From positions 10,475-74,474 of the forward strand of contig PCVY01000064.1 of NCBI GenBank assembly GCA_002787155.1: a stretch of DNA of 64,000 nt, given 5' to 3'. Positions within the stretch are counted from its first letter, which is position 1. The number at the start of each line of letters is the position of its first letter. Shown here in pieces: positions 1 to 23,785 of the stretch. Origin of the DNA: Candidatus Abzuiibacterium crystallinum. Lineage in GTDB: Bacteria > Omnitrophota > Omnitrophia > Omnitrophales > Abzuiibacteriaceae. A program made the position numbers and the translations under genes. The notes below the pieces were generated by a model, which worked only from the letters and a program-made list of their open reading frames with translations, did no database searches and was not told where the DNA came from.

Positions 1-3000
1 CAGAAGTTTTATGGAGCGCTTTACGTACAGCAGGTATGCTGGATGATGAAGGCCGTCCGACTGAACAATTCAAGAAGTTAAGAGTGCAAATGCGTTTTGA
101 CGGATCTCCTGAACATGTTCAGGCAGTTCTAAAATTGGGCATTCCGGATCAATTTAAATGGTTCCAAAATGACATCATTCGGATGTTGGATGATGCCGGT
201 CGTTCAGAGTTGCGTATCAGCGAAATGGAAGCTTTTCGTGATGAGGTGGAAGAGACAGAAAAGTGGATGAATAGTGACCGCTTTCAAGGTATCAAGCGTC
301 TTTATTCAGCGCGCCAAGTGGTGGAACAGCGCGGAACCATTAAAAAGGTTTATCAGGTGGCACATGACGGAGCTGTCGGAATGTATGCGCGCTTGCGTGA
401 ATTATTTGCTAATCGCGAAACCAACACTACTTACGGGCCTTATTCAGGCGGCCAGATTGTGACCATGAAGCGTTTAATAAAAAATCACATTGTTTATTTA
501 GGCGGTTGGGCAACTTCTGCGCAAGGGGATGACACCGAAGAGCCCGGCGCTGATTTAGCCAGTTATCCTTTAAGCCGTGTTCCGCTTGAAGCGGCTCGTT
601 TGATTCGGGCATTGCTGAAAGCCGATGGCAGCCAACAATATGAGCGAATGCACATGTCTGAATCAGAGCGCAACAAAACAGCCGCATTTGATTTCAGACC
701 TTGGATGATTGCCGATGCGGATACCGGTCACGGCGGGGATGCACACACGCGTAATTTGATCAGGCGTTTTGTGGAAGTGGGCGTGCCGGGTTATCACATT
801 GAAGATCAAAAACCGGGATGCAAGAAATGCGGTCATCAGGGCGGCAAAGTTCTCGTTTCAATTGAAGAGCACATTAAACGCTTAAATGCAGCGCGTTTTC
901 AGCTGGATGTGATGGGTGTGCCGGGTATCGTTGTATCTCGCACGGATTCAGAAGATGCTTCGTTTTTGGATAACAATAGTGACGAACGCGACCACAGTTT
1001 TATTTTAGGAGTTACTAATTTAAATGTTTTGGAGTACAAATTACTGACACTTGCTATTCAAAAACGCTTTTATGATTTGGGTGTTACCACGATCAATGGC
1101 CATGAACTTTATGGTATTACAGATGCGCGCTATCAGGAAGCTATGCAATGGCTCAAAAAACAAGGGCTCTTAGATCAGATTGATGAATTGGTTAAAAGTG
1201 TTGATATGAAGGACAAGGCTAGCGACAGTGATGAAAAAGCCTTGGATAAAGCGACCGCGCTGATGCATGAGAAATGGGTTGAGGAAGCAAATTTAAAAAC
1301 ATACGGGCAGGCAGGTGCTGATGTGATGGCAGAGCGCATCGCAGCAGGCGAGTCGTTCGATATGTCTGTTGAAGAATGGCTCTCTTTTACCAAAAAAGTA
1401 TCCAACCAAGAAGCCCGGGCCAAAGCAAAAGAGCTTGGCATTGAAGTGAGTTGGGATTGGGAATTGGCCCGAACCCCCGAAGGTTACTATCAAATTAAAT
1501 CCGGCATCGAATACGCCATTCACCGCCAGCTTTATTTTGCACCGTTTGCGGACATGCTTTGGATGGAAACCAAGACTGCCAATTTAGAGGAAGCACGCCA
1601 ATTTGCCGAAGGTATTCACGCCGTTTTTCCCGACAAAATGCTAGCCTACAATTTATCGCCTTCCTTTAATTGGGATACCACCGGCATGACGGATGAGGAA
1701 ATGCGCCAATTTCCCGTCGAACTTGGAAAGCTGGGGTATGTTTTTAATTTTATCACTTATGCCGGACACCAAATCGATGGTTTGGCAGCTGAGGAGTTTA
1801 CGCGTGCTTTTATCAAAGATGGCCCCTTGGAACTCGCGCGCGTCCAGCGTCGATTTAGGCTGCATAAATCCCCTTATACCCGGCCACAGAAATTGGTCGG
1901 GGGCGCCATTCAAGATGCAGCGCTCATGGCTTCCACAGGCCGTACGGCTGCTACCAGAGCCATGGGAGGGAAGTCGACTGATAAACAGCATCAAAAACCA
2001 ATTGAATTACCGACTTCGCTTTTAGATGGCTGGCTAGAAACGTGGGTAGAAGTTAACCAATATCCCACAGGGCCTCTCACCGCAGAACTTCAGGCAACTT
2101 TTGATAATCCAGGCGAGTTAATGCTCAATGTTTTTGATCGGGAATTCCAAAGAATTGCCTCAATTATTTTTCGCGATGAAACTGATCGAGAAGGAAAACA
2201 TAATTTATTCATTAAAGATCAGCTCACAGAAGAAGTCTGGCGGAACAAACGCCTCACTACCTTGATGCATTTGTTTTTAATCAAGCGTTTCAAAGCGGAT
2301 ATTGTCAATTATATTCGTCCCACCTTGGCTAACCAAACCATGGCCCGGAGAATGATGAGTCTGGGTTTTTATGTGGAAGCGGCAACGAATGGGGAAGCTA
2401 ATTTAATCATGAGTGCCCACGTCAATATGATGGCAATTGATTCCTTAATTCAATCTGACAAGGCGCTGACAGATTTTATTACAAGGAAAGCTGATGAAAA
2501 ACTCTTGATCACGCAACGAGCTGAACAATTGCAAGCCGATTTGAGCGTGAAACAACTGGAATTAACCAAGGCACGTTTAAATTCTGCGAAAGATGTAGAT
2601 ACCATCACGCAATTGGACGCCGAAGTACGCGAGGCTCTGCGCGCGCTTGATGAGTTTGTTCAATTGGCGGGAGAGCTTGAAGAATTAAAATCAGACGTAT
2701 CACAAACGCCGGCAGACCAAAGGCAGTCATTAGAAGACAAAATTCTAGACATTCGTACCCAGCTTGGTTTAACTGAGCATGCAAGGGGTGAAGCGGTTCA
2801 TTCAGAACTTCGGGAAGAGAAGGTCGAAGTGTCCGGCACGGGAAAACCTGCAAAGGAAAAGGTTGATAATCAATTAAGCATACCCTTTAAACAGCTGCCG
2901 CCCGAACAAAAGATAGAACTGTCCCGCGGCGGAGTCGTTACCGTCAAACAAGCACGGGCCGTTCAAGCTTTGTTGACAAAACTTTTAAGGGAGGATATCT

Positions 3001-4820
3001 CAGCAGTCATCAATCTGCAAATTCTGGCAGAAAAGGGCAGTCATGTGCCCATCAACGAAATACCTGCTGCCACAGAAGGCCAAGCGCCTCAAAAAGTGGT
3101 AGCGGAAGACCAAGTGCAAGCACTGGAAGCAACTAAGTTGGTGAAGGTAGAGCGCGAGAAAGGCGGGAGAGTGACAGTGACTATGCCAACTGTCATTCGA
3201 GCGCTTATCCTTTCTATTTTAAGCGGCGCCCATGTATTTGAGTACGAAGTTGTCCGCGATCCGCGTAAGGGTGCAGGCACGGTTCAAGTGACGGCTCAGC
3301 CAGGTAATGGCCGCCTCGAAAGCAAAACAGCTGCTCTTGCTCTCAAAACTTCACCGGTGATACCGAACGTATCGCCTGAAGTCACAGAAGACGGAGGACT
3401 TTCCCTTGCCGATGCTGATGAACAAGCAGAAAAAGTGCCTGCAAATGCCATTGATTTTATGGCGCTTCGTCAAAGCGTTGCAGATGCTGCTATTCAAATT
3501 ATTATGCAAGCCCATTCCAATAAAGGGGCAGTGGATGACAATCAGCTTCACGTTACCTTTGGGGGTAAAGAAGTGGTTCATGTGGTGTTGCCGGAAAGTT
3601 TATTGGAGTTTGATGATACGTTTGCGAGGGACGCACAAAGGGCAATCGGCGACAAATTTAAAGCGCATGGCGGCTTACTGTTTACCCTAGAGGTTCAAGG
3701 GACAATTATTCATATTAGGCATATCGATGGGACGGGGACGGTCACAAATGATTCCGGAACCCCTGTGGTTGGTTTGCGCGTGGTGGGTGTTAAGAATGAT
3801 GGGCGTTCCGAACTTCGTTTCAGCGATCTTTTAGCTGATCATTTAGAGGTTCTGAAAGGCACCAAAGCACTCGCTGAAAAACAATTGCGCCAATTTAATG
3901 CATTACCCCAAGGTCTTCAATCTACTCAAGAAGAAGATTGGCTGCGCACACAGCTGGGGGAAATTAACGACGCTATCGCTAAATTACTTGCTACCGAGCG
4001 CACCGAACTCCGTAATCATGTCACGCACCCGGAGCATCGGTTTGCAGAAAAGCTACGAATTGGAACCGAATTGGAAGCACTGCAAATGCAGTTAGCCGGA
4101 TTACATCAAAAGCCGGAAAGTGAATTAACTGACACTGAACGGGAGACCATCCAGCAAATTGGAGATGCCATTAAAGCTTTGCAAGATTCTTTAGACCAAC
4201 TTTCAGCTCAGGGCCGCTCGGTTCCGAAACATGCCGAGTTAAGAATTGATTCCAGCACAAATGATATTTCTGTGTTTTTAAGAATCAGTGATCAAATCAA
4301 AACCATGTTTGCACAAGATGAAGAAGCCCACGAACCACAGAGATTGATCGGATGGGTGAGTGGCGTTGTTAATCAATCTGTTAACAGTCAGTCAACCACG
4401 GCCATATCGGAATCGCGTGTTGGGTACGCTGTTTCCCGTGCGGTGGCCTTTGATGAAGCGATGGTCTTTATTTTGGCAGAATTAGCGCGTCATCAAGCTG
4501 CGCCCATCGTCATAGTGACAGATTTTGACACGGATTTAGCCATTGTGAATCAAATCAACGCTACTTTACCGGAAGGGCGCGAAATTCTAACGGCTTCCAA
4601 CGAAGTGGCGGCCGCTAACTTGTTATGGGCAAAGGGTATTCGAAATAGCACTTATCTCACCAGGGAAGAGTTGGACGCAGTGAGATTAAAAAATGTGTTT
4701 AGCCAAATTACCATACTCACAGAAGCAGCCATGAATCGGATTAAATCAGGTATCGATGGTTTAACAGAAATACTGAACCAAGCTGCTCAAGCATATAACA
4801 CCATCGTCACTGCTGTTTAA
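1..4820 (+). CDS. isocitrate lyase-domain giant fusion protein, 5'-partial (ICL catalytic domain with a long-form insertion, then a ~930-aa C-terminal extension of unknown function)
   Basis: The ORF track reports 36..4820, but the frame is open back to nt 3 with no stop, so the gene probably begins upstream of the window. The ICL active-site signature K-K-C-G-H ([12 protein letters not shown]) lies at about nt 823-837. The N-terminal region has a eukaryote/ICL2-like pattern ([37 protein letters not shown]). [19 protein letters not shown] and FNFITYAGH motifs are present. There is a long insertion, typical of long-form ICLs, between the SRTD and NLSPSFNW blocks. The ICL domain ends around nt 2000. 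The remaining ~930 aa have coiled-coil stretches and no domain I recognise. There is no malate synthase signature. Confidence 0.85.
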
Positions 4821-4875
4821 TTTTCAGGCCAGCCGGCGTCTTGCGAAAAGGATGGTTCTGCTTTCGTAAAAAAAC

Positions 4876-4907
4876 TTGGGGTCAGGTCCCGGACCTGACC
4901 CCAGGGG
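4876..4907. repeat. REP-like palindromic element copy 1 (GGGGTCAGGTCC-C-GGACCTGACCCC)
   Basis: Perfect 12-bp arms around a single central base, core 4878-4902, flanked by CTT...AGG. It lies 56 nt after the stop of the upstream giant gene. Confidence 0.85.
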
Positions 4908-4925
4908 TTGAAAGAAGACAAATGA

Positions 4926-7900
4926 ATGAAACAAACAGGTTTTGGTTCCAAGTTACTGTCACTTACCCTCAGTTTTAGTTTATTTACCACCTGCTCCGTT
5001 GGTTTTACCGATCCGTCACTTATCTTGGGGTCAGGTCCGGGACCTGACCCCAGGCACCTCACGCGCACCAAAGCAGCCGGTCATTCTCTTTCCGTTATTC
5101 ATCAATTAACCGCGCTTAACCCAGAAATTGCGCGCGATCTTTGGCGCCGTCAACAACTGCCTGCTGCTGTTACGCGGTTTATCGATTTATCTGTCAAATC
5201 CGAACTCAGAAGTTCAAGCAATGACACTTGGGGTCAGGTCCGGGACCTGACCCCAGGAGTTCATCGGGCGGAATCATCTTTTTCGTCTAAAATGAAACAG
5301 GGATCATCCGTCAGGACAGTTATTTTCCTGGCTGTTTTGAGTCTAACAGTTTATCTGGGTTTTTTGCAAGTGGCACGCTTTCCAAGCGGCAACGTAAAAT
5401 TGGATTGGGCGGCAGCCTCTTTGATGCCTGTGATTGTGACGGGTGTTTTTTTGGTAGGCTTATTTCGAAATCATTTATTATCTTCCGGTCGGCTTTTTTC
5501 AATCTCGATTTTGGCCGCTGCTCTTTATGGTTGGACAACTGTTCTCGCCAAGCCGGTTCTTAATTTCCCGATGACCCAAGTGGGTCCGCTTCCTTACATG
5601 ATCACGCTTTGGGGAGCGGCTATTTTGCTCCTGCATTATGTTTACGATCAACTTTTTCGTATGAGTGGTAAAGTCAATGGGTCAACCAACACTTCATTCA
5701 CGAGTAGCTGGTTGGCACGATTGATACCACTCTATACTGATTTCAAAATTCTTTTCAAACTCAAACGAGCCACTTCCCGAAACGGAGCCGATTTAACCTC
5801 CACACAACAAATGTTAACTATGAATCGCCGTGCGGGTTTTCTCAGGGGAACTTTTTGGCATCTCGGACCTTTTGCGCTGGCCTTGTGGGGGTCACTTTTT
5901 TCCCAGACATTGGGCGCAGGGACACTTTATTTAGCACTTTACCAGGGCTTAAATCCAAATGTTTATGGTGTGATGGCCCCGATTGGTATTGTGCTCTTAC
6001 CGGGCCTGTTGGCTGCTTGGTGGCTTGGGGAAAAGTTCACAGCGCGCAAATTGATCGGCTATGCCATGGTCTTTTCAGGCATGGCGGCCATTTCAGCCGT
6101 GAGTTTAACGCAAGCGTCCGTTCAGGTTCCATTCGCAGCTTTAGCGCTTGGTCTATTATCCGCTGTTTTTTATGGATTACGCCAGATATTTCATAAACAG
6201 TTGTTTAATAAAAATCTGGATGCCTTGTCAGCGGGTGAGCATGCGCAACTGGAGATGGCGGTTAATCGATTAGGCTATTTTTTGGGGACGGTTACGATGA
6301 TTGGCATCGCCGTCATTCAGGCGATTGTGGGGAATCAGCCGATCGGGTGGTTTACTTTTCTGGTACCTTCAATGGCTATTTTAACAATCGCCAATATGTT
6401 TGTCTGGACGGGAATGTGGGTTCTGGTCTTTTTTGTTACACGCCATATCCACGCTTCTCGATTAACGCCGATTTTAGCTACTTTTCCGTTCTGGACCATG
6501 CTCTGGCAGTGGGTTGTGACCGGTCAATTAAACCCAAGTTTAATTGCAATCGGCGGACTTGTGCTTGCAGGCGGCATTTTGGCATCTTATCAAAAGCCCA
6601 CGCAGGTTGACGGTGGTAGCCGATCGGAATTACGGACTTCTGCCGGGATGTCATTGTTTTCCAAACCCCATTTAAGAACCATTTATATTATTTCACACGT
6701 TATCCTTTTTGGTGTGGGACTTTTGGCTTTTCCGACCCTGTCACTGCTGGCATACGAATCAATTCATATAGGGGCAGTGATTAATTTGATGTTTTTTGCC
6801 AGCTTTGTTTTGATTGGTAATGCGTTCATTCATCAGATTTATCAATGGTATGGTTATCGTTTCAATTTTAAGAAACTTGGCGCCGCCATCACATTGAGTC
6901 TGGTGTCGGGTGCGGTCACTCTCTTGGGCGTGATGCTGATTAATGAGCTATTCCCGCTGGGGCAGGAGTTTGCGGGAACAACCTTTAGATTACCATTGGG
7001 ATTTGGACGCGTTCAAATTGATTTTGCACACCCGTTAATTGCACATACGGTGGTTGCGATACCGCGTGTTCTCATGGCGATTGTTTTAGAGGCTTTAAAC
7101 TTGTTGCTATTGGATTTGCCTTTTCGCTTTTATCGTGACCAGCTTAAAAGCCGGCACGAAGGAACGCAATCAAATTTGAAAAAACGAGAAGCATTTTATC
7201 TTTCACGTTTGTATTCACTGGCAGCTTATTATTTTATTTTGGTGTGGCTGCCAAATTACACTTCTGTTTTGTTCATTGGTTTAGTTTTACAACTGCTTCG
7301 TTTGTTTTTACATGTGTCGGCTAATCGAAAGTCTTATTGGGTAAAATCTTGGTTCATACAAAACCACCGTACTTTGCTCGTTATTTTTCCGCTTTTCTAT
7401 CCTTTCGTCAAACTAGCCCGTTCGTTGCATTGGCTGATAACGCCGAAAGAAACGATTAGCGTAGAGGCCAAATCACGTGTTCTGGCAAGCGCTGTGTGGC
7501 ATGCTTATGAACAATACCAGAAGGAACTTCAAGCACTCAATGACAGGGCATTATCGTTGTTTGAACAAGGCGATTGGGCTCACCTGCAGGTAGATTATCA
7601 GCGCCGGCTTGATTTATATAGCCAATCAATCGAAAATGCCAGCCTGGAAATTAGCCGACAAATTGGGAATGGCTTTATCTCAGAGCAAACCATTTGGGAT
7701 CAAGCACGCACGCATTTTGATGTGTTGGTGATTAATCCTTTGGATAAAAAGTTAGCGGATGCCTTTTTTTATACGGTCAAACGGCGCTTTATTCCGGGAA
7801 CTGAAAGCGATATTCGTTTTATTGCTGAAGACGTCCATCTGTTTAGAGGTTCTGAAGACGTGCTGGAACCGGTATTTACCTCTTACAAAAGAAAAGTTTC

Positions 7901-10900
7901 TACCCGGGCAGCGGTAGAAACCATCCTGAGTCATTATGGTTTTAAAATTCCTTATGAAGATCACGAGCGGGATGTGAATCACATTACCGACCTGGTTAAT
8001 AGACAATTACACTTAGAAGAAGGTGAACCAAATGCGAAAGTTGAGCGTTTTGAAATGCTCAATCCCATCTTTACACGATTTAAGAAAATTTACATTGTCG
8101 GAAGAATTCGAGTGAAAGCCAATACCATTCCTTTGGTATTGGTTTTTGACAACCACAGCCAGAAATTAGTATTGGATCAGGTGGTGATGGAGAGCCTGGA
8201 TGTGAGCCGCTTGTTTGGCTTTACACATTCTCAATTTACGGTGGTGACGGATAACTACCAGGCATTGGTTAACTTTCTTCATGAATTGATGCCGCGCAAA
8301 CATCTTTCGCAAATTTATCGGGTGATCGGCCAATACAATTTGGCTAAGGCCGAAATTCTAAAGGATCTATTCAATCTGATTCGTAAACGGCAAGAACGTT
8401 TTCGCTTGAGTGAGGGAGTGAAAGGTAAAGTTGTCATCAGTTTTTCGCTTCCATCTTCTGACATGATGATTAGAGTGCTTAAAGATAGGCCTGATAAACC
8501 TTTATCACCTCGTGAATTCGAAGCAAAACACTACTTTGCCCGCCATGTTTATAAAGCCGGACGCATCGTAGAAATGATCGGCTTACGAAATGTCAGATTT
8601 CCGAAAGCGGCGTTTGAAGCGGATGTTCTTAAAGAATTATTGGAAAAATCAACAGATCCTGAAAACGGTATTGTCGAAGACGGAGAGTTTATAATTTTAA
8701 AACGTTTTTTTGTCCAAAGATATGTAATCCCTCTAGACATTTTCTTTCAACGGGAGAAAGATCCGGAGATCAGACGCCGCATTCTATTGGATTTAGGTCA
8801 ATTGCATAAAGATTTGGCCAGGGTGAATATTTTTAATGTGGATTTTCTCCCTCACAATCATGGTGTTATTGCAGCAGGAACAGCCAATATGCGCGTTGTT
8901 TTATTTGACCTTGATGCCATTGAATTGTTGACCGATCAAAACTTTCTGAGCGTACCCAGATATTCACGGCCTGTTGATGACGGGGACTTTGATTTGGATT
9001 ATTTTATGTATGGCGGTGATGCGGAAGATATGCGAATGGCGGCGCCCTCGAATGATCAGTACCCCGAACAATTCGAACTCTTAAAAGATATACCTCTTGA
9101 CTTAGTAACCGAATTTATGAGAGTTCATGGTGATTTAATACAGCCGGATTTTTATCTTGCCACCCAACGTGATCTCTGGCAGCAAGCTGATGAATTAGTG
9201 CGCACTTTTCCGTATTCTCTGCTGGCGCGGCGGAGAGCCAACCCCATTCACTCAGAATTGCGGCATTTTTCTTTAGCTGAAAGACTCCAAACGCAGGAGT
9301 TCGTTGTGACAACCGAATTGGATGAACCCGACATGACGCCTGATTACTGGAAATTAATCGACCAAGGCTGGGTGCACGGCATGACCATTACGGATTTACC
9401 TTTGATTTCTAAGGTAGAAGATTTATTGAAACGATACCAAGCAAAGAAAACCATTCGCCAAAACCCGTTTGCCATTTTACACCAAACAACAGGTGCAATC
9501 GTCACTGTTGCCGCCGGTGCGCGTTTTCGAGGTAATATCAGGAACCGCATTTTAAGAATGGTGGAAGAGAATGCGGGCGGGATTTTAGCGGTAGCCAGCG
9601 GTGGTTTGATCAGGCGCTTGGCAAGGGTATTGTGGCTAGAATGGCTTCTGCCCATGAATTCATTTAAAATTTTACGAATGGTAAAAAAAATGAAACAAGC
9701 AGGTATCATTCCTAAAGATTTTCTTATCATGGGTGTTGAAAATCCTTTAATTGGGGACCCCGTTACACAGGTTGACCGGCTGGAGGAGAAAATCGAAGCC
9801 GGAGCAGAAGCCATTATGACCCAGCCGCCGCTTTTATGGCATCAATTTGAAGCTTGGTGGCGAGAAGTTGAGAAGAGAGGATTAAACCGAAGGGTGCCTA
9901 TCATTATTGGTTTTCCGTTTATTACTTCACCGGCAAATTTAAGATTTTGGTATTTTCTGACAGGCGTATCTTCACATCACTTAGAAGCACAAGCTTTGCT
10001 AAGTGAGTTTGAAGAAAAACAAAATGAAGGCGCAGAAGCGTTTGCCAAGTTTCGCCAAGAATTTTCAGAAGGCTTACTAAGAAAAATACGGACATTGCCG
10101 CATGCAGCTGGTATTCATCTTTTTCCTTTGAAAGGCATGCCGCAAGTGATCCCAACGCTTAAAGCCAATGATTTAAGGCCGCCTTTACACCATATCCGAA
10201 GGATTGACCGGCTCATTGGTTTATATGATGAACTGGGCGTTCAGCTGGATATTGAAAATGTGGCTTACAAAGATGAGCATGTCAAGCACCTTGAAGGTGT
10301 CTTGTCTGTGATCTACGGCGTGATTAAGAACTTTGATGATAGACCTAAACGAATAACTATTAACCGAGTTTTTTATAAACAGCATTTTTTAGATAGTGTG
10401 ATGGTAAGAGATATCGTTGGTTCTTCTGATTGGGAACTGACCATCGATTTAAAATCATTTGAAAGAGATAAACTATTTAATATCAAACGCTTAAGACATC
10501 AAGTACAGCAAAAGATCTTAGATCGCAAACGTCCTGAAAGAAAAAAGGAAATTTTTATTACAGCGGGGCCATTTAAACGGTATGCGCATAGTTTGATACG
10601 GCAATGGAATGAAGCTTTTTGGCAGCATGTCAAAGCCATGATGAAAGCATTAAAGCGGGATTATCGAGATACGATCGCCGGTTCGCCTGATACGGAAGCG
10701 CCGATTCTTCATTACAATGCGGAACGGTTTTTGTTGGAAGATCTTTTACCCCTCCGCGAACAAGAAAAACAAACGGGAGTGCCTCCTCAGCCGGTGGCGT
10801 ATGTAGAAGGCGGTGTGGCAAGCATTGATTATGCGCGCGGATTTGTGGATCAATTAAAGAAATTGGCAGAAGACCGCGGTTTGGCCGATTTGCTTACCAA

Positions 10901-13517
10901 CGTCACTTATGTGTTAGCTGACCTTTCTTCTTCCATTATTGAACAAGCCAAACAGGAATTAGGCAAAAGCCGTAATGGAATCAAGTTTGACATGTTGCAG
11001 CTGGATGCCGCCAATCCAACCCAAGCACTTGAGAAATATCAAGGTCAAATATTGCGCGGTCATCTAACCAATATCTTAGACAACTTGCCGACCGATTATT
11101 TTGTCCGCCGAGAAACAAAGTCATACATTGTTGAAAGCAGGCCGCGTTGGTCGAAACCTGAAATCATTGCTTTGGCGCGGCAATATCAAATCAAAGAAGA
11201 TGAATTGATCAAGGATTTGCAGAATTTATCCGAAACGGGTGTTCAACATTTCCTGGGAAAATACAGACAATCTTTTCATCGAAGTGCCTATCGGACACCC
11301 GAGCAGTCGGATGAGTTATTCTACCGATTTTGGTATGACTTGTATGGCAATAAAGACAGGCCCGGAACGGGACTGCGGCTAGAAGAACAGCTGGTACCCA
11401 TTAACGATCTTGAGCAATTTCATTTTCTATCTCAAACCGAACTTTCGGGAGCATTGCTAGCCGAAGCCTTAGATGAAGTAGAAGGCGACATCCGTATGCC
11501 GCTTTCTAATCATGCCATTGACGCGGTCTTGGCTTGGCAAAAGTTGCTACATCCGGACGGCGTGATCGAAATCTTTGATATCGTGGTTGATAGATTTGAG
11601 GATTTCCAAACCAAAGAAAATCGACCGAACAAAACAGCAAAATATGACGGCTCGGCCGTTGATTGGATCAATGGAGCACTTTTGCGCGTCATTGGCAAAG
11701 CTCTCATTCCGGGTTTTCACATGACGGTCGAAAATCTAGGCCGTTTCGGTAAACGCTTCAAAACCATGTCCTTGGTCGAAATTCGCCAAAATCAAGAAGT
11801 CACCGTTAAACCGCGAGCAGAACTACGCGTATCATCGGTCCAGGATCGATTAATTGATTTAACCGCTGAAGCGGAAGCGCAAGGGATTGACTTAGATGCT
11901 ATTGCACAAACGCTGAAACAGGAAGACTACTATGTTGAAGACTTGGTGCGCGAAGTTTTGCGGGATGCCATTCAATTTCATCCTTCGGCCGATTTGCTTA
12001 CAGCCGACAATCTCAAAAGGTTGGTTTCTTTACTTGAAATAATTGGTTTGAAGCGGATTGAACCGGTTTCATTTGTTCGGACGGATGACAAAGGCGTTCC
12101 ACTCATGCGATTTTCGCCTGAAGTCGCCGAATTTATGCGTGAGCGAAAGCAAAAAGGGTCATCATTAATCGTGTCGTACCTGGTGTTTAAGCGTGACGGC
12201 GTAGAAGCGGTTTTACAACATGACCCAACTGCCTCTCAAATTGCAATCAACATAGCGCTTTCACCCAATTATGGGGCGTCCAATACGTTGTCGCAAAGCC
12301 AACATGAGTTTTTTGATAATCGATTAGCACCACAGCTTGACTGGCTCGAAGAGATCAATGAAGCACGGCGAGAAATATCTGATTCTAAACTTAAACCCGT
12401 GGGCGTGAGTGCTTATTTAAGTAATGCATGGGGTGCTCAGGATTTAACGATTGATTTTGATGACGAAAAAGCATTTACCGGCTGGCTTGAAGAAATCAAA
12501 GGTTGGATACGAAAGTTTCAAGCGAAAGAAATCGAGGAAGTGGTGTTAAGCGATACCACCGGTGAAGCCAGACCGGCGGATATTACAAAACTATTTAGCG
12601 CTCTCATTCAAGATACGGAATTTAAAGATATCAAATTTGCTTTTCACGGACATGACAGCGGTAACGGTCTTTTAAATGTTTTTGCCGCGCTAAAGGCGGG
12701 TGTTCGGATGATTGATACTTCCATTGGGAATTTAGGCGGCTCGCCTTTCTCTGAAACCACACATACCTATAAAGGACGGAAACCAGGTAACATCACGACC
12801 GAGGATTTAATTTTTTTACTCAAAGCGAAAGGCGTTCCGACGAATATCGATTTTGATCGTCTTTTAGAAGTTGTTCGGGAGTTTGAACGTATTTTGAGTG
12901 ATAATTTTGTTGAAAATACCCGCGTGTTGGGTTTGCACCACTTGCCATTGGCAGAAAGAGAAGATCTATTTAAATTGATGGGACCAAAGGCAAGACGTTC
13001 AGAACTGAAAGCAGTAGAACCAGTTTTAACACAAGCGCCGGCAGCTTTTAGTAATCGTTTACGTTCAGAACTTCGATTGATGTTGGTGCCGCCCTCAACC
13101 GTGACGGCACAAAACATTGGCTTGGCATTCGGCAGGCGAGACACCTTTGAAGTATTAACGCCGGTTCTTTTGCAGCAATTGGCAAGCGCTGGAATTCCTG
13201 TGGTTGTGATTGCGCCCACATCGATTGAAAAAGGCGTCATTGATCAAATCAATCACCAGACGGCAAATGAACATGCTATCTTGATTGCTGAGAGTCTGCA
13301 GGAGGCAGCCTATCAATTAAAAAGGCAGCAAATAGAAGAAACCCGCTTTGTCAGCACCGAGCGCTCAGACCTTGATCTTGCGGCACCTTTTTTTAACGTG
13401 GTTGCTTACTTGCCCAAAGAACAGCTTACCGGGTGGGTATTGTCACAAGTGAAAGCAATTGCCGTCATGATGCAACAATCCCGCGCTAATTACGAAAGAC
13501 TCTTACAAGCCGCTTAG
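4926..13517 (+). CDS. giant multidomain membrane protein (2863 aa as called): EamA/DMT-like permease modules + AceK-like isocitrate dehydrogenase kinase/phosphatase domain + MetF (MTHFR)-like domain + Rossmann methyltransferase-like region + HMG-CoA-lyase-like DRE-TIM metallolyase domain
   Basis: This is an uninterrupted 8.6-kb ORF. The first 122 codons contain two REP palindromes, so the true start is probably the in-frame ATG at 5292 (MKQGSSVRTVIFLAVLS...). About 5292-7400 encodes many TM helices with EamA-type module ends (GEKFTARKLIGYAMVFSGMAA; TGQLNPSLIAIGGLVLAGGILAS). About 7490-9270 encodes an AceK-like domain (FEQGDWAHLQ vs E. coli FEQADWHAVQ; NIFNVDFLPHNHG...VVLFDLDAI vs NIFPGDMLFKNFG...VVFYDYDEI; LARRRANP vs YRRRQRF). 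About 9460-10180 is MetF-like (KIEAGAEAIMTQ...VPIIIGFPFITS...AGIHLFPLKG). About 10795-11740 is Rossmann methyltransferase-like. About 12160-12960 is HMGL-like (FKRDGVEAV; FHGHDSGNGLLNVFAALKAGVRMIDTSIGNLGGSPF...TEDLIFLLKAKG). Confidence 0.8.
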   Translation: MKQTGFGSKLLSLTLSFSLFTTCSVGFTDPSLILGSGPGPDPRHLTRTKAAGHSLSVIHQLTALNPEIARDLWRRQQLPAAVTRFIDLSVKSELRSSSNDTWGQVRDLTPGVHRAESSFSSKMKQGSSVRTVIFLAVLSLTVYLGFLQVARFPSGNVKLDWAAASLMPVIVTGVFLVGLFRNHLLSSGRLFSISILAAALYGWTTVLAKPVLNFPMTQVGPLPYMITLWGAAILLLHYVYDQLFRMSGKVNGSTNTSFTSSWLARLIPLYTDFKILFKLKRATSRNGADLTSTQQMLTMNRRAGFLRGTFWHLGPFALALWGSLFSQTLGAGTLYLALYQGLNPNVYGVMAPIGIVLLPGLLAAWWLGEKFTARKLIGYAMVFSGMAAISAVSLTQASVQVPFAALALGLLSAVFYGLRQIFHKQLFNKNLDALSAGEHAQLEMAVNRLGYFLGTVTMIGIAVIQAIVGNQPIGWFTFLVPSMAILTIANMFVWTGMWVLVFFVTRHIHASRLTPILATFPFWTMLWQWVVTGQLNPSLIAIGGLVLAGGILASYQKPTQVDGGSRSELRTSAGMSLFSKPHLRTIYIISHVILFGVGLLAFPTLSLLAYESIHIGAVINLMFFASFVLIGNAFIHQIYQWYGYRFNFKKLGAAITLSLVSGAVTLLGVMLINELFPLGQEFAGTTFRLPLGFGRVQIDFAHPLIAHTVVAIPRVLMAIVLEALNLLLLDLPFRFYRDQLKSRHEGTQSNLKKREAFYLSRLYSLAAYYFILVWLPNYTSVLFIGLVLQLLRLFLHVSANRKSYWVKSWFIQNHRTLLVIFPLFYPFVKLARSLHWLITPKETISVEAKSRVLASAVWHAYEQYQKELQALNDRALSLFEQGDWAHLQVDYQRRLDLYSQSIENASLEISRQIGNGFISEQTIWDQARTHFDVLVINPLDKKLADAFFYTVKRRFIPGTESDIRFIAEDVHLFRGSEDVLEPVFTSYKRKVSTRAAVETILSHYGFKIPYEDHERDVNHITDLVNRQLHLEEGEPNAKVERFEMLNPIFTRFKKIYIVGRIRVKANTIPLVLVFDNHSQKLVLDQVVMESLDVSRLFGFTHSQFTVVTDNYQALVNFLHELMPRKHLSQIYRVIGQYNLAKAEILKDLFNLIRKRQERFRLSEGVKGKVVISFSLPSSDMMIRVLKDRPDKPLSPREFEAKHYFARHVYKAGRIVEMIGLRNVRFPKAAFEADVLKELLEKSTDPENGIVEDGEFIILKRFFVQRYVIPLDIFFQREKDPEIRRRILLDLGQLHKDLARVNIFNVDFLPHNHGVIAAGTANMRVVLFDLDAIELLTDQNFLSVPRYSRPVDDGDFDLDYFMYGGDAEDMRMAAPSNDQYPEQFELLKDIPLDLVTEFMRVHGDLIQPDFYLATQRDLWQQADELVRTFPYSLLARRRANPIHSELRHFSLAERLQTQEFVVTTELDEPDMTPDYWKLIDQGWVHGMTITDLPLISKVEDLLKRYQAKKTIRQNPFAILHQTTGAIVTVAAGARFRGNIRNRILRMVEENAGGILAVASGGLIRRLARVLWLEWLLPMNSFKILRMVKKMKQAGIIPKDFLIMGVENPLIGDPVTQVDRLEEKIEAGAEAIMTQPPLLWHQFEAWWREVEKRGLNRRVPIIIGFPFITSPANLRFWYFLTGVSSHHLEAQALLSEFEEKQNEGAEAFAKFRQEFSEGLLRKIRTLPHAAGIHLFPLKGMPQVIPTLKANDLRPPLHHIRRIDRLIGLYDELGVQLDIENVAYKDEHVKHLEGVLSVIYGVIKNFDDRPKRITINRVFYKQHFLDSVMVRDIVGSSDWELTIDLKSFERDKLFNIKRLRHQVQQKILDRKRPERKKEIFITAGPFKRYAHSLIRQWNEAFWQHVKAMMKALKRDYRDTIAGSPDTEAPILHYNAERFLLEDLLPLREQEKQTGVPPQPVAYVEGGVASIDYARGFVDQLKKLAEDRGLADLLTNVTYVLADLSSSIIEQAKQELGKSRNGIKFDMLQLDAANPTQALEKYQGQILRGHLTNILDNLPTDYFVRRETKSYIVESRPRWSKPEIIALARQYQIKEDELIKDLQNLSETGVQHFLGKYRQSFHRSAYRTPEQSDELFYRFWYDLYGNKDRPGTGLRLEEQLVPINDLEQFHFLSQTELSGALLAEALDEVEGDIRMPLSNHAIDAVLAWQKLLHPDGVIEIFDIVVDRFEDFQTKENRPNKTAKYDGSAVDWINGALLRVIGKALIPGFHMTVENLGRFGKRFKTMSLVEIRQNQEVTVKPRAELRVSSVQDRLIDLTAEAEAQGIDLDAIAQTLKQEDYYVEDLVREVLRDAIQFHPSADLLTADNLKRLVSLLEIIGLKRIEPVSFVRTDDKGVPLMRFSPEVAEFMRERKQKGSSLIVSYLVFKRDGVEAVLQHDPTASQIAINIALSPNYGASNTLSQSQHEFFDNRLAPQLDWLEEINEARREISDSKLKPVGVSAYLSNAWGAQDLTIDFDDEKAFTGWLEEIKGWIRKFQAKEIEEVVLSDTTGEARPADITKLFSALIQDTEFKDIKFAFHGHDSGNGLLNVFAALKAGVRMIDTSIGNLGGSPFSETTHTYKGRKPGNITTEDLIFLLKAKGVPTNIDFDRLLEVVREFERILSDNFVENTRVLGLHHLPLAEREDLFKLMGPKARRSELKAVEPVLTQAPAAFSNRLRSELRLMLVPPSTVTAQNIGLAFGRRDTFEVLTPVLLQQLASAGIPVVVIAPTSIEKGVIDQINHQTANEHAILIAESLQEAAYQLKRQQIEETRFVSTERSDLDLAAPFFNVVAYLPKEQLTGWVLSQVKAIAVMMQQSRANYERLLQAA
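5024..5054. repeat. REP-like palindromic element copy 2 (GGGGTCAGGTCC-G-GGACCTGACCCC)
   Basis: Same 12-bp arms as copy 1, core 5027-5051, with the same CTT/AGG flanks. It translates as GSGPGPDP in both orientations, which explains the overlapping + and - ORFs in the track. Confidence 0.85.
5227..5257. repeat. REP-like palindromic element copy 3
   Basis: Identical to copy 2, core 5230-5254, and 35 nt upstream of the in-frame ATG at 5292. Confidence 0.85.
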
Positions 13518-13696: not shown

Positions 13697-14698
13697 ATGT
13701 TTAAAAAAGTATACTTACCGGTTCTTATTTTAATCACCATCCTTATTTGTCCTTCTCAGTTACAGGCTGCCAAAGACTCAGGCGATGTGGCCGCTAAAAT
13801 CGACAAAGACGTGATTACCATGAGCGAATTAAACAAAGCAGCCGAATCAGACCTGATGCCGCTTGCTTCACAAATTTATGACATCAAGAAAAAACGGCTC
13901 GATCAAATGGTGGAAGACAAATTGTATGAATTAGAAGCCAAGAAGCAGAAAACGAGCGTTGAAGCATTAAAAGCTGAAATTAATAAGGGCGATGAAGACA
14001 TGAGTGACGATGCGATCGAGGTGTATTATGATTTAAACAAGGCACAATTCGGCAATCGGCCGCTCGAACAAGTTAAGGCTCAAATTAAAAATCTTTTGAT
14101 CCGACGCAAACTTGACAAAAGCAACGATGAATTCTTAGCTGGTTTAAGAAAGAAATACAATGTGGAAGTGATGTTGGAAGAACCGAAAATGGAGTTGGAT
14201 ATAGATGGATACCCTTCACGCGGTCCCGATAACGCCAAGGTGACTGTGGTTGAATTTACCGATTTCCAATGTCCTTTCTGCAAACGGTTTAAAGATACCA
14301 TTGACCAATTGGTAGAAGAATACCCGAACGATGTCAAACACGTTTTTCATCATTTACCGCTTCCCATGCACCGCAATGCCAAAGGGGCACATCATGCCTC
14401 GGTTTGTGCCGACCGCCAGGGTAAATTTTGGGAGATGCGCGAAGTATTATTTAATAATGCCACAGCACTTGAGCGTGAAAATCTAAATAAATATGCCGGG
14501 GAAGTCGGTTTGGATATGGACGCTTTTAGTAAGTGCATGGAAGATCCTGAAATTGATAAATACTTAGACGATGCTGCCAGTTACGCGCAATCGGTCGGAG
14601 CGCGAGGAACACCCACCTCATTTGTGAACGGCACCTTGTTCAGGGGCGCTCAGCCTTATGAACAGCTTAAGCAGGTGGTTGAGACCAAATTAAAATAG
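13697..14698 (+). CDS. periplasmic DsbA-family thiol:disulfide oxidoreductase with an N-terminal chaperone-like domain
   Basis: It has a signal peptide (MFKKVYLPVLILITILICPSQLQA) and a thioredoxin-fold active site CPFC (FTDFQCPFCKRF). The ORF track starts at 13661, but the ATG at 13697 follows a GA-rich RBS. Confidence 0.7.
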   Translation: MFKKVYLPVLILITILICPSQLQAAKDSGDVAAKIDKDVITMSELNKAAESDLMPLASQIYDIKKKRLDQMVEDKLYELEAKKQKTSVEALKAEINKGDEDMSDDAIEVYYDLNKAQFGNRPLEQVKAQIKNLLIRRKLDKSNDEFLAGLRKKYNVEVMLEEPKMELDIDGYPSRGPDNAKVTVVEFTDFQCPFCKRFKDTIDQLVEEYPNDVKHVFHHLPLPMHRNAKGAHHASVCADRQGKFWEMREVLFNNATALERENLNKYAGEVGLDMDAFSKCMEDPEIDKYLDDAASYAQSVGARGTPTSFVNGTLFRGAQPYEQLKQVVETKLK

Positions 14699-23396: not shown

Positions 23397-23738
23397 ATGG
23401 AAAATACCTCAAAACAGCAAACAGAACCATCAGCCGAGATCCAAGAAGGTAAATTCTTTGCCATTAGCGGCTATCTTTTCGTCCTGTGTTTTGTACCGCT
23501 TTTACTTAAGAAAGACAATAAGTTTGCCCAATTTCATGGAAGGCAAGGCCTTGTCCTGTTTATCTTTGAATTGGCGGCTGCGATTGTTAAATCCGTACCG
23601 GTCATCGGCGATGTTATTTTCTCTTTTGCTTACGTCATCTTTGGCATTGCTTCCTTGATCGGTATTGTCCGCGTGTTGATGAATGAATACTGGGAAATGC
23701 CCCTGGTTCACAACATCGCACGTAAAATAACATTATAA
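23397..23738 (+). CDS. small membrane protein (DUF4870-like)
   Basis: The ISGYLFVLCFVPLLLKKDNKFAQFHGRQGLVLFI pattern is typical of DUF4870 small membrane proteins. It has 2-3 TM helices. Confidence 0.5.
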   Translation: MENTSKQQTEPSAEIQEGKFFAISGYLFVLCFVPLLLKKDNKFAQFHGRQGLVLFIFELAAAIVKSVPVIGDVIFSFAYVIFGIASLIGIVRVLMNEYWEMPLVHNIARKITL

Positions 23739-23785
23739 TATTCCGTTTGATTTGCAAATATCTTGTTTGAAAGGAAGGACATGTC

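Follow-up and report, generated by a model that had tools for sequence, protein, structure and literature searches.

An isocitrate lyase within a 1,720-residue modular protein of the Omnitrophota: a candidate polyprotein precursor with a repeated pentapeptide delimiter

Results

Three adjacent giant proteins with a probable glyoxylate-shunt set

The window analyzed here is a 64,000-nt stretch of contig PCVY01000064.1 (assembly GCA_002787155.1, positions 10,475 to 74,474, forward strand) from Candidatus Abzuiibacterium crystallinum. It opens inside a gene for a very large protein that contains an isocitrate lyase (ICL), hereafter the ICL giant, which is followed by a second giant containing AceK and preceded by a third with a malate-synthase-like region. 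Both neighbors have a leader homologous to that of the ICL giant, the same pentapeptide motif, [RHK][SA]ELR, and the same C-terminal domain, so that the link to a neighboring megaprotein suggested by an earlier, sequence-only reading of the window holds at the level of sequence. At a probability of roughly 50%, we propose that the ICL giant is a polyprotein precursor that would be cut at the pentapeptide into separate enzymes.

The reading frame of the ICL giant

Within the window the gene occupies 1..4820 (+), where frame 3 stays open from base 3 up to a stop codon at 4818-4820; the leader (aa 1-74) and the first copy of the motif, HSELR (aa 75-79), lie outside. The sequence-only reading had noted that the frame runs past the 5' edge and that the protein must be larger still. 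With upstream sequence from contig PFGO01000040.1 (assembly GCA_002781965.1, Ca. Abzuiibacterium crystallinum, Omnitrophota), the open reading frame (ORF) reaches back a further 342 nt from the window edge, to an ATG at L001 9476 that is preceded by a G-rich Shine-Dalgarno-like stretch, and encodes 1,720 aa.

A frame of this length could be an artefact of a frameshift, a misassembly or a decaying fusion, with the C-terminal part derived from a separate or dead gene, and the shorter product annotated by NCBI (1,545 aa) would fit such an origin. This explanation is already refuted, and we give it next to no chance. Over 19,895 nt there is no difference from an independent ENA assembly of another sample (L006), whose own gene caller also gives 1,720 aa; because the independent assembly is base-identical, frameshift and misassembly are excluded, and the C-terminal part, whose origin the sequence-only reading had singled out for a check of this kind, belongs to the same gene. 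The adjacent AceK giant, encoded on the same stretch, is unchanged on 11 contigs. The 1,720 codons are free of stops in a region where the other frames are rich in them: the 776-aa C-terminal extension has 0 stops in frame and 44 and 53 in the other two frames, and the random chance of 776 open codons is about 4e-21. Codon-position GC is coding-like throughout, and the last 135 aa form a conserved domain whose predicted fold has a predicted local distance difference test score (pLDDT) >90. The ORF of the ICL giant is real. A plasmid or phage origin was also considered and rejected: megablast gave no match, and the rest of the window is a housekeeping chromosome (riboflavin, pyruvate dehydrogenase, branched-chain and aromatic amino-acid synthesis, lipopolysaccharide core).

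Downstream of the leader and first delimiter, the parts of the ICL giant in the window are as follows.

1..200 (+): C-terminal part of module s1 (aa 80-181), an orphan with no homologue found
201..215 (+): delimiter RSELR (aa 182-186), ending 4 residues ahead of the ICL2 alignment
216..2489 (+): complete ICL2-type isocitrate lyase module (aa 187-944)
822..836 (+): catalytic KKCGH
2004..2489 (+): C-terminal regulatory domain of ICL2 (aa 783-944), from the 6edw alignment and a separate match to 8g8k (E 5.4e-17)
2490..2798 (+): helical (coiled-coil-like) spacer (aa 945-1047), in one segment with ICL2 (aa 187-1047)
2799..2813 (+): delimiter HSELR (aa 1048-1052)
2814..3803 (+): module s3 (aa 1053-1382), an orphan without sequence relative, pLDDT about 25-55
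3804..3818 (+): delimiter RSELR (aa 1383-1387)
3819..4229 (+): module s4 (aa 1388-1524), predicted long helices
4230..4244 (+): delimiter HAELR (aa 1525-1529)
4245..4817 (+): terminal module s5 (aa 1530-1720), with the C-terminal domain at about 4416-4754

A complete ICL2 module

Residues 191-944 of the ICL giant align unbroken with residues 36-785 of the 786 in the Mycobacterium tuberculosis ICL2 structure (6edw; E 6.4e-257), and the region is matched by PF00463 (435.9 bits, cutoff 26; E 2.6e-130) and TIGR01346 (439.9 bits, cutoff 275.9). The alignment conserves the metal-site motifs DADTGHGG and HIEDQ and takes in the eukaryote-like inserted domain of ICL2. The sequence-only reading had recognized an ICL of the ICL2/eukaryote-like type, in agreement with this end-to-end alignment; it had also found the KKCGH motif, placing it at 823-837, one base off its true position. 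By sequence, the module is an ordinary and complete member of its family and is probably an active isocitrate lyase.

The likeness to M. tuberculosis ICL2 (AceAa/AceAb; PDB 6EDW, 6EE1) thus covers a 754-aa module from end to end, including motifs, insert and regulatory domain. The M. tuberculosis protein, however, is free-standing (766 aa), whereas here ICL2 is flanked by 186 N-terminal and 776 C-terminal residues that it leaves without explanation. The extension had been put at about 930 aa. Its greater part, 776 aa (window 2490-4817), indeed lacks a known homologue, but about 170 aa of it were already known, since ICL2 has its own complete regulatory domain; that domain also speaks against the suggestion that the extension supplies regulation to the ICL.

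Nor is an ICL in so long a protein unusual, as had been supposed. Identity to the nearest ICL2 relatives, which are spread over many phyla, is 53-59%, and because many of these relatives are ICL2-malate synthase fusions of ~1,416 aa, an ICL protein of >1,000 aa is not unprecedented. In these fusions (Thermodesulfobacteriota, Bythopirellula, 'bacterium HR37'; 55-59% identical to the ICL2 here) the extension is a recognizable malate synthase (PF20659 and PF01274). None was seen with the extension found here, and a shared ICL-plus-extension architecture, which the sequence-only reading had proposed to look for, was not found among homologues.

An extension built of separate modules

The full order of the protein is leader, the 102-aa module s1, ICL2, helical spacer, the orphan 330-aa module s3, the helical module s4 and the C-terminal Rossmann-like domain. 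The extension, which had been imagined as a single scaffold or regulatory module, is therefore a series of separate modules, with [RHK][SA]ELR as the delimiter between them. Most of it matches nothing known, as the sequence-only reading had held: no match to window aa 830-1472 came from Pfam or NCBIfam, from PDB sequences, or from sets of 5.8 billion clustered proteins and 1.84 billion representatives. A word-index homologue search with the extension returned only the protein itself, and an exhaustive phmmer search returned six proteins, all matching the last ~135 aa only. Scanning GTDB representative genomes and JGI metagenomes for patterns from the extension or from the C-terminal domain gave nothing, such scans being insensitive to divergence of this degree. 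A known domain within the extension was likewise rejected, as ICL2 was all that searches of Pfam, NCBIfam and PDB sequences detected.

A single-sequence AlphaFold model of aa 945-1529 has low confidence (pLDDT 47.5). Its long helices at aa 945-1050 and 1388-1529 are in line with the coiled-coil segments of the sequence-only reading, which on this low-confidence model alone are only partly borne out. The ~55 residues ahead of HSELR (aa 1048) resemble those ahead of HAELR (aa 1525), so that window 2658-2813 and 4071-4244 appear to hold a repeated helical spacer unit placed before the delimiter.

A pentapeptide at module borders

The ICL giant has five copies of the motif, at aa 75, 182, 1048, 1383 and 1525. 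Six-frame translation of 73.8 kb yielded 17 copies, all in the three adjacent giants (seven in the upstream malate-synthase giant, five in the AceK giant) and none elsewhere. Among 12 proteins of the family described below, from four organisms, we counted 81 motifs against 0.27 expected. The E, L and R of the motif are invariant, its flanking positions are without conservation, and every Arg and Leu codon (six each) is in use, as are both Glu codons. Because all synonymous codons occur, selection acts on the peptide and not on DNA or RNA; an origin at the nucleic-acid level, such as a recombination site or a recoding signal, is thereby ruled out.

The motifs are located at module borders, with 0 of 17 inside recognized domains (P about 5e-4). 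One stands 4 aa before ICL2, another 6 aa before a class I aldolase, whose far end touches the next motif, and a third 6 aa after AceK. The enzyme modules so bordered span nearly the whole of their free-standing homologues (ICL2, 36-785 of 786; AceK, 8-573 of 582; aldolase, 2-338 of 349), and in the single-sequence model the motifs lie in low-confidence linkers beside helices. Neither Pfam nor NCBIfam has a model that covers leader, motif or C-terminal domain, and we found no mention of RSELR, HSELR or RAELR in this context in the papers searched. At the locus of one relative (L013 4046-4867) a called gene starts MHRSELRV..., with the motif at residues 3-7; the frame is open upstream and the start is uncertain.

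Because a short invariant site sits in unconserved linkers, recognition by one trans-acting factor is indicated. ICL2 and class I aldolase work as homo-oligomers. Proteolytic release is the simplest reading, because the modules are complete free-standing enzymes and several are normally homo-oligomers. We infer a precursor in which a leader resembling a Sec-type signal peptide, a small module, ICL2, a helical spacer, two further modules and a Rossmann-like C-terminal domain would be made as one chain; [R/H/K]-[S/A]-E-L-R would be read by a single dedicated enzyme, most likely an endopeptidase, which would cut the chain at the motif to give separate proteins.

Leader and C-terminal domain

The leaders of the three giants are homologous (ICL versus malate-synthase giant, E 5e-9): a positively charged n-region leads into a hydrophobic core of 11 aa, after which comes a c-region of small-x-small pattern. 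Judged simply by counts of hydropathy and charge, 11 of 11 family leaders have the layout of a signal peptide, for which we took the Sec-type criteria of a positive n-region, a hydrophobic core of 7-15 aa and small residues at -3 and -1. A prepilin-type or Tat-type leader was rejected by eye, there being no G/F-E5 site and no twin arginine.

The C-terminal domain stands at the extreme C-terminus in 15 of 16 family proteins and is predicted to adopt a Rossmann-like alpha/beta fold of five strands, with a terminal helix after it (the last 135 aa, pLDDT >90). Neither of two catalytic assignments fits: a protease (clan CD-like) is contradicted by the lack of a conserved Cys/His and of a Ser/His/Asp set, and an active HAD-superfamily phosphatase by the lack of a conserved DxD at the end of strand 1. 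To judge by these residues, the domain is non-catalytic and family-defining.

In the C-terminal domains of five members (P0002, P0007, L016b, L017a and L017b), an RSELR-like sequence (TPTRSELRFV, TPTRAELKII) occurs where strand 2 meets helix 2, and at the equivalent position of the ICL giant (window ~4520-4540) the motif is absent; the delimiter thus equals a local consensus of that domain. At the very C-terminus, Ala is the last residue in 13 of 15 family proteins, seven of which have Ala-Ala there (for instance QAA, IAA, EAA). These Ala tails, which include window 4809-4817 and 13506-13514, recall ssrA-type or tail-specific-protease recognition tails.

Neighboring giants and locus

The upstream giant (2,008 aa) combines a divergent malate-synthase-like region with a complete class I aldolase. 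Its malate-synthase-like match is partial: PF01274 covers 125 aa with 44.2 bits, and TIGR01344 reaches 50.6 bits where the cutoff is 594.5. Downstream of the ICL giant the window contains the following features.

4875..4905 (.): palindromic hairpin between the ICL and AceK genes (-27.9 kcal/mol), the palindrome being perfect and the + strand lacking a U tail
4926..13517 (+): AceK giant, 2,863 aa, of the same design
5196-5210, 6621-6635, 9249-9263, 11814-11828 and 13062-13076: its five delimiter motifs
5301-7328: its hydrophobic stretches (membrane modules), about 19 in the protein
7470-9230: complete AceK module
9654-9974: weak MTHFR-like match, below the Pfam cut-off
11958-12914: HMG-CoA-lyase-like module
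13098-13499: C-terminal domain
13697..14698 (+): DsbA/thioredoxin-like gene, the next gene downstream after the AceK giant

The AceK module passes Pfam thresholds (PF20423, 199 bits; PF06315, 129.8 bits) and falls below that of the NCBIfam equivalog (340.7 versus 488 bits). On one strand the activities run malate-synthase-like, ICL, AceK, the order of the Escherichia coli aceBAK operon. In contrast to that operon, they are buried here in modular proteins of 1,720-2,863 aa, with an aldolase and an HMG-CoA-lyase-like module as additional enzymes and a weak MTHFR-like region, and the malate synthase match is far below the family cut-off (50.6 versus 594.5 bits). Under the polyprotein proposal, the three adjacent genes would provide a glyoxylate-shunt set, in aceB-aceA-aceK order, as three processed precursors.

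A DsbA-like gene 57% identical to the one in the window (L014 1286-2356) lies directly downstream of a minimal family member, P0003, in another organism, a conserved synteny with a periplasmic-type oxidoreductase. A second hairpin follows the malate-synthase giant (L001 9364-9408; -28.6 kcal/mol) and has a U-rich tail. About 1.4 kb upstream of that giant, a 117-aa gene (L001 1543-1896) matches 23S_rRNA_IVP and bAvd, the latter a family of diversity-generating retroelement accessory protein; no reverse transcriptase was found in the 3 kb around it. At window ~23400-23740, a 113-aa gene with a weak match to the magnetosome protein MamF/MmsF adjoins genes for a TonB-dependent receptor and TonB.

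The family in other genomes and a linked, weakly Tiki/ChaN-like gene

Another contig of the same genome encodes a fourth member of the family, P0004, which has 1,393 aa and six motifs. The metagenome-assembled genome GCA_964387845.1 has a row of giants of 4,770, 2,595 and 4,508 aa: the first carries RidA, UDPGP, HEAT and PGM (Pfam) and 16 motifs, the second GDH and 18 motifs, and the third MeaB, methylmalonyl-CoA mutase and biotin carboxylase. Two JGI metagenome contigs encode giants with PGK, PGM, acetyl-CoA carboxylase, GDH, UDPGP, enolase and PPDK modules, in chains that have the leader, motif and C-terminal domain of the family. Family proteins share 20-35% identity, confined to the two terminal elements. 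The minimal members P0003 and P0006 consist of leader and C-terminal domain, with no motif; since they lack enzymes, they suggest that the enzyme modules are passengers inserted between these two elements.

Two irregularities were seen among these proteins. A single TGA (L016 4791-4793) separates two in-frame giant ORFs (2187-4790 and 4794-9818), the second of which has no leader or nearby start codon; the TGA could be readthrough, selenocysteine or a sequencing error. At L017 6161-9841, the enolase C-terminal TIM-barrel (aa 365-658) precedes the N-terminal domain (aa 796-894), an order that looks permuted.

In 4 of 4 loci with flanks, a gene of 507-560 aa lies between giants. It is 64-86% conserved, has a signal-peptide-like N-terminus and carries the invariant motifs DAHVN..EAQK, RDQALVENL and GGFHK. 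Its copies are located as follows.

L008 22751-24325: Tiki/ChaN-like gene
L013 1608-3290: Tiki/ChaN-like gene
L016 9932-11524: Tiki/ChaN-like gene
L017 9950-11542: Tiki/ChaN-like gene

The DAHVN, RDQALVENL and GGFHK motifs we take to resemble those of the Tiki/TraB/ChaN superfamily, in which the Tiki proteins are metalloproteases. PDB sequences gave no match, and a sub-threshold match to PF04187 (ChaN) is the sole database signal of the gene. We regard its product as a candidate processing enzyme.

The leaders and the genes linked to the giants also bear on another reading, in which the giants are exported effector or surface polyproteins of MARTX or gingipain type. The giants would cross the inner membrane by way of the leader, processing would take place in the periplasm or in a host, and the enzymes would act on or in a partner cell, where host carbon flow might be diverted by the action of AceK, ICL and malate synthase. 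This would suit the signal-peptide layout of all family leaders, the similar N-terminus of the candidate Tiki-like enzyme and the DsbA-like gene, conserved directly downstream in two organisms. A host-dependent life has been proposed for Omnitrophota, most of whose giant proteins have signal peptides or transmembrane helices (PMC10066038; bioRxiv 10.64898/2026.06.07.730766); the glyoxylate shunt is otherwise absent from the 176 complete Omnitrophota genomes surveyed. We nevertheless consider export to a partner cell improbable: no secretion system or host is linked to the locus, the rest of the window encodes ordinary self-sufficient metabolism, about 19 hydrophobic stretches in the AceK giant would be odd for a delivered effector, and the C-terminal domain is unlike any known secretion signal.

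Discussion

Processed multi-module precursors are known in several settings. In MARTX toxins, the CPD cuts after Leu between effectors; gingipain polyproteins have a signal peptide, modules cut at Arg/Lys and a C-terminal sorting domain; viral polyproteins and cyanobactin precursors with repeated recognition sequences are further cases. The Omnitrophota giants share with them the logic of a leader, passengers split by a short repeated site and a conserved terminal domain. They differ in having no sequence or fold relationship to any of these precursors, in carrying enzymes of central metabolism as passengers, and in a C-terminal domain that is Rossmann-like and has no conserved Cys/His or Ser/His/Asp set.

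The anatomy of the giants, the motif statistics, the features common to the paralogues and the occurrence in other organisms are observed; cleavage, the identity of the cutting enzyme and the destination of the products are inferred. Several observations weigh against cleavage at the pentapeptide. ICL with its catalytic Cys, malate synthase with acetyl-CoA, and AceK with ATP and isocitrate dehydrogenase need the cytoplasm, and a Sec-type leader predicts export, in conflict with such enzymes. Some members have an RSELR-like motif within the fold of the C-terminal domain, where beta2 joins alpha2, and in L008b a motif lies 5 residues from the C-terminus; neither place is expected of a pure cleavage site. 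The family is small, with few organisms represented. As for the processing enzyme, the PF04187 match is sub-threshold (E 9.5e-4; 18.9 versus 27.7 bits) and was obtained for 2 of 4 members, the Tiki/ChaN superfamily takes in non-proteases too, and no protease candidate or Tiki-like gene was found in the ~110 kb examined of this genome.

The placement of the motif in a folded domain and near a C-terminus fits binding better than cutting, and the giants might instead be uncut multi-domain scaffolds, close to the idea of the sequence-only reading. The pentapeptide would then be a binding or hinge motif, and the C-terminal domains would gather the three giants into a membrane-tethered shunt assembly. 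A C-terminal domain and leader common to three adjacent giants would suit such an assembly, and shunt enzymes can viably be joined in one chain, as the ICL2-malate synthase fusions show. Yet an invariant five-residue site in unconserved linkers, present in up to 18 copies per protein, exceeds what hinges need, and the tandem tethering of homo-oligomers beside multi-pass membrane modules would be awkward. We therefore hold the scaffold to be unlikely, if a better prospect than delivery to a partner cell, and favor the cleaved polyprotein.

Long Omnitrophota proteins that tile many domains were already known, as 'Archaeovorins' (bioRxiv 10.1101/2023.11.21.568195) and as 'multi-enzyme metabolic cluster' long proteins (bioRxiv 10.64898/2026.06.07.730766). 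Cleavage of these giants into smaller products has been proposed, and the 2023 preprint (bioRxiv 10.1101/2023.11.21.568195) states that information on cleavage points is lacking. The proteins described here fit the 'multi-enzyme metabolic' class in their Omnitrophota origin, their many metabolic Pfam domains and their signal-peptide-like leaders or transmembrane segments, the preprint giants likewise tiling metabolic domains and mostly having a signal peptide, transmembrane helices or both. At 1.7-2.9 kaa (thousand residues), those of the present locus are far below the 10-kaa threshold of that catalogue (bioRxiv 10.64898/2026.06.07.730766). The giants of both preprints have at least 10,000 aa and no named cleavage points, and neither preprint describes the leader, the pentapeptide delimiter, the C-terminal domain or the linked Tiki-like gene.

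We tentatively extend the proposal, at rather less than even odds, to the family as a whole: some Omnitrophota may make ICL2, malate-synthase-like, AceK, aldolase, PGK, enolase, PGM, GDH and acetyl-CoA carboxylase modules as signal-peptide-led polyproteins, cut at [RHK][SA]ELR by a dedicated and so far unrecognized enzyme, possibly the Tiki/ChaN-like protein. If true, bacteria would use a virus-like polyprotein strategy, and the pentapeptide would be the missing cleavage code for the giant proteins of this phylum. An invariant delimiter at module borders offers a direct hypothesis for whether Omnitrophota giants act whole or cut. The locus also provides a probable glyoxylate-shunt set in a phylum whose 176 surveyed complete genomes had none, and it raises the puzzle of why cytoplasmic enzymes stand behind export-type leaders.

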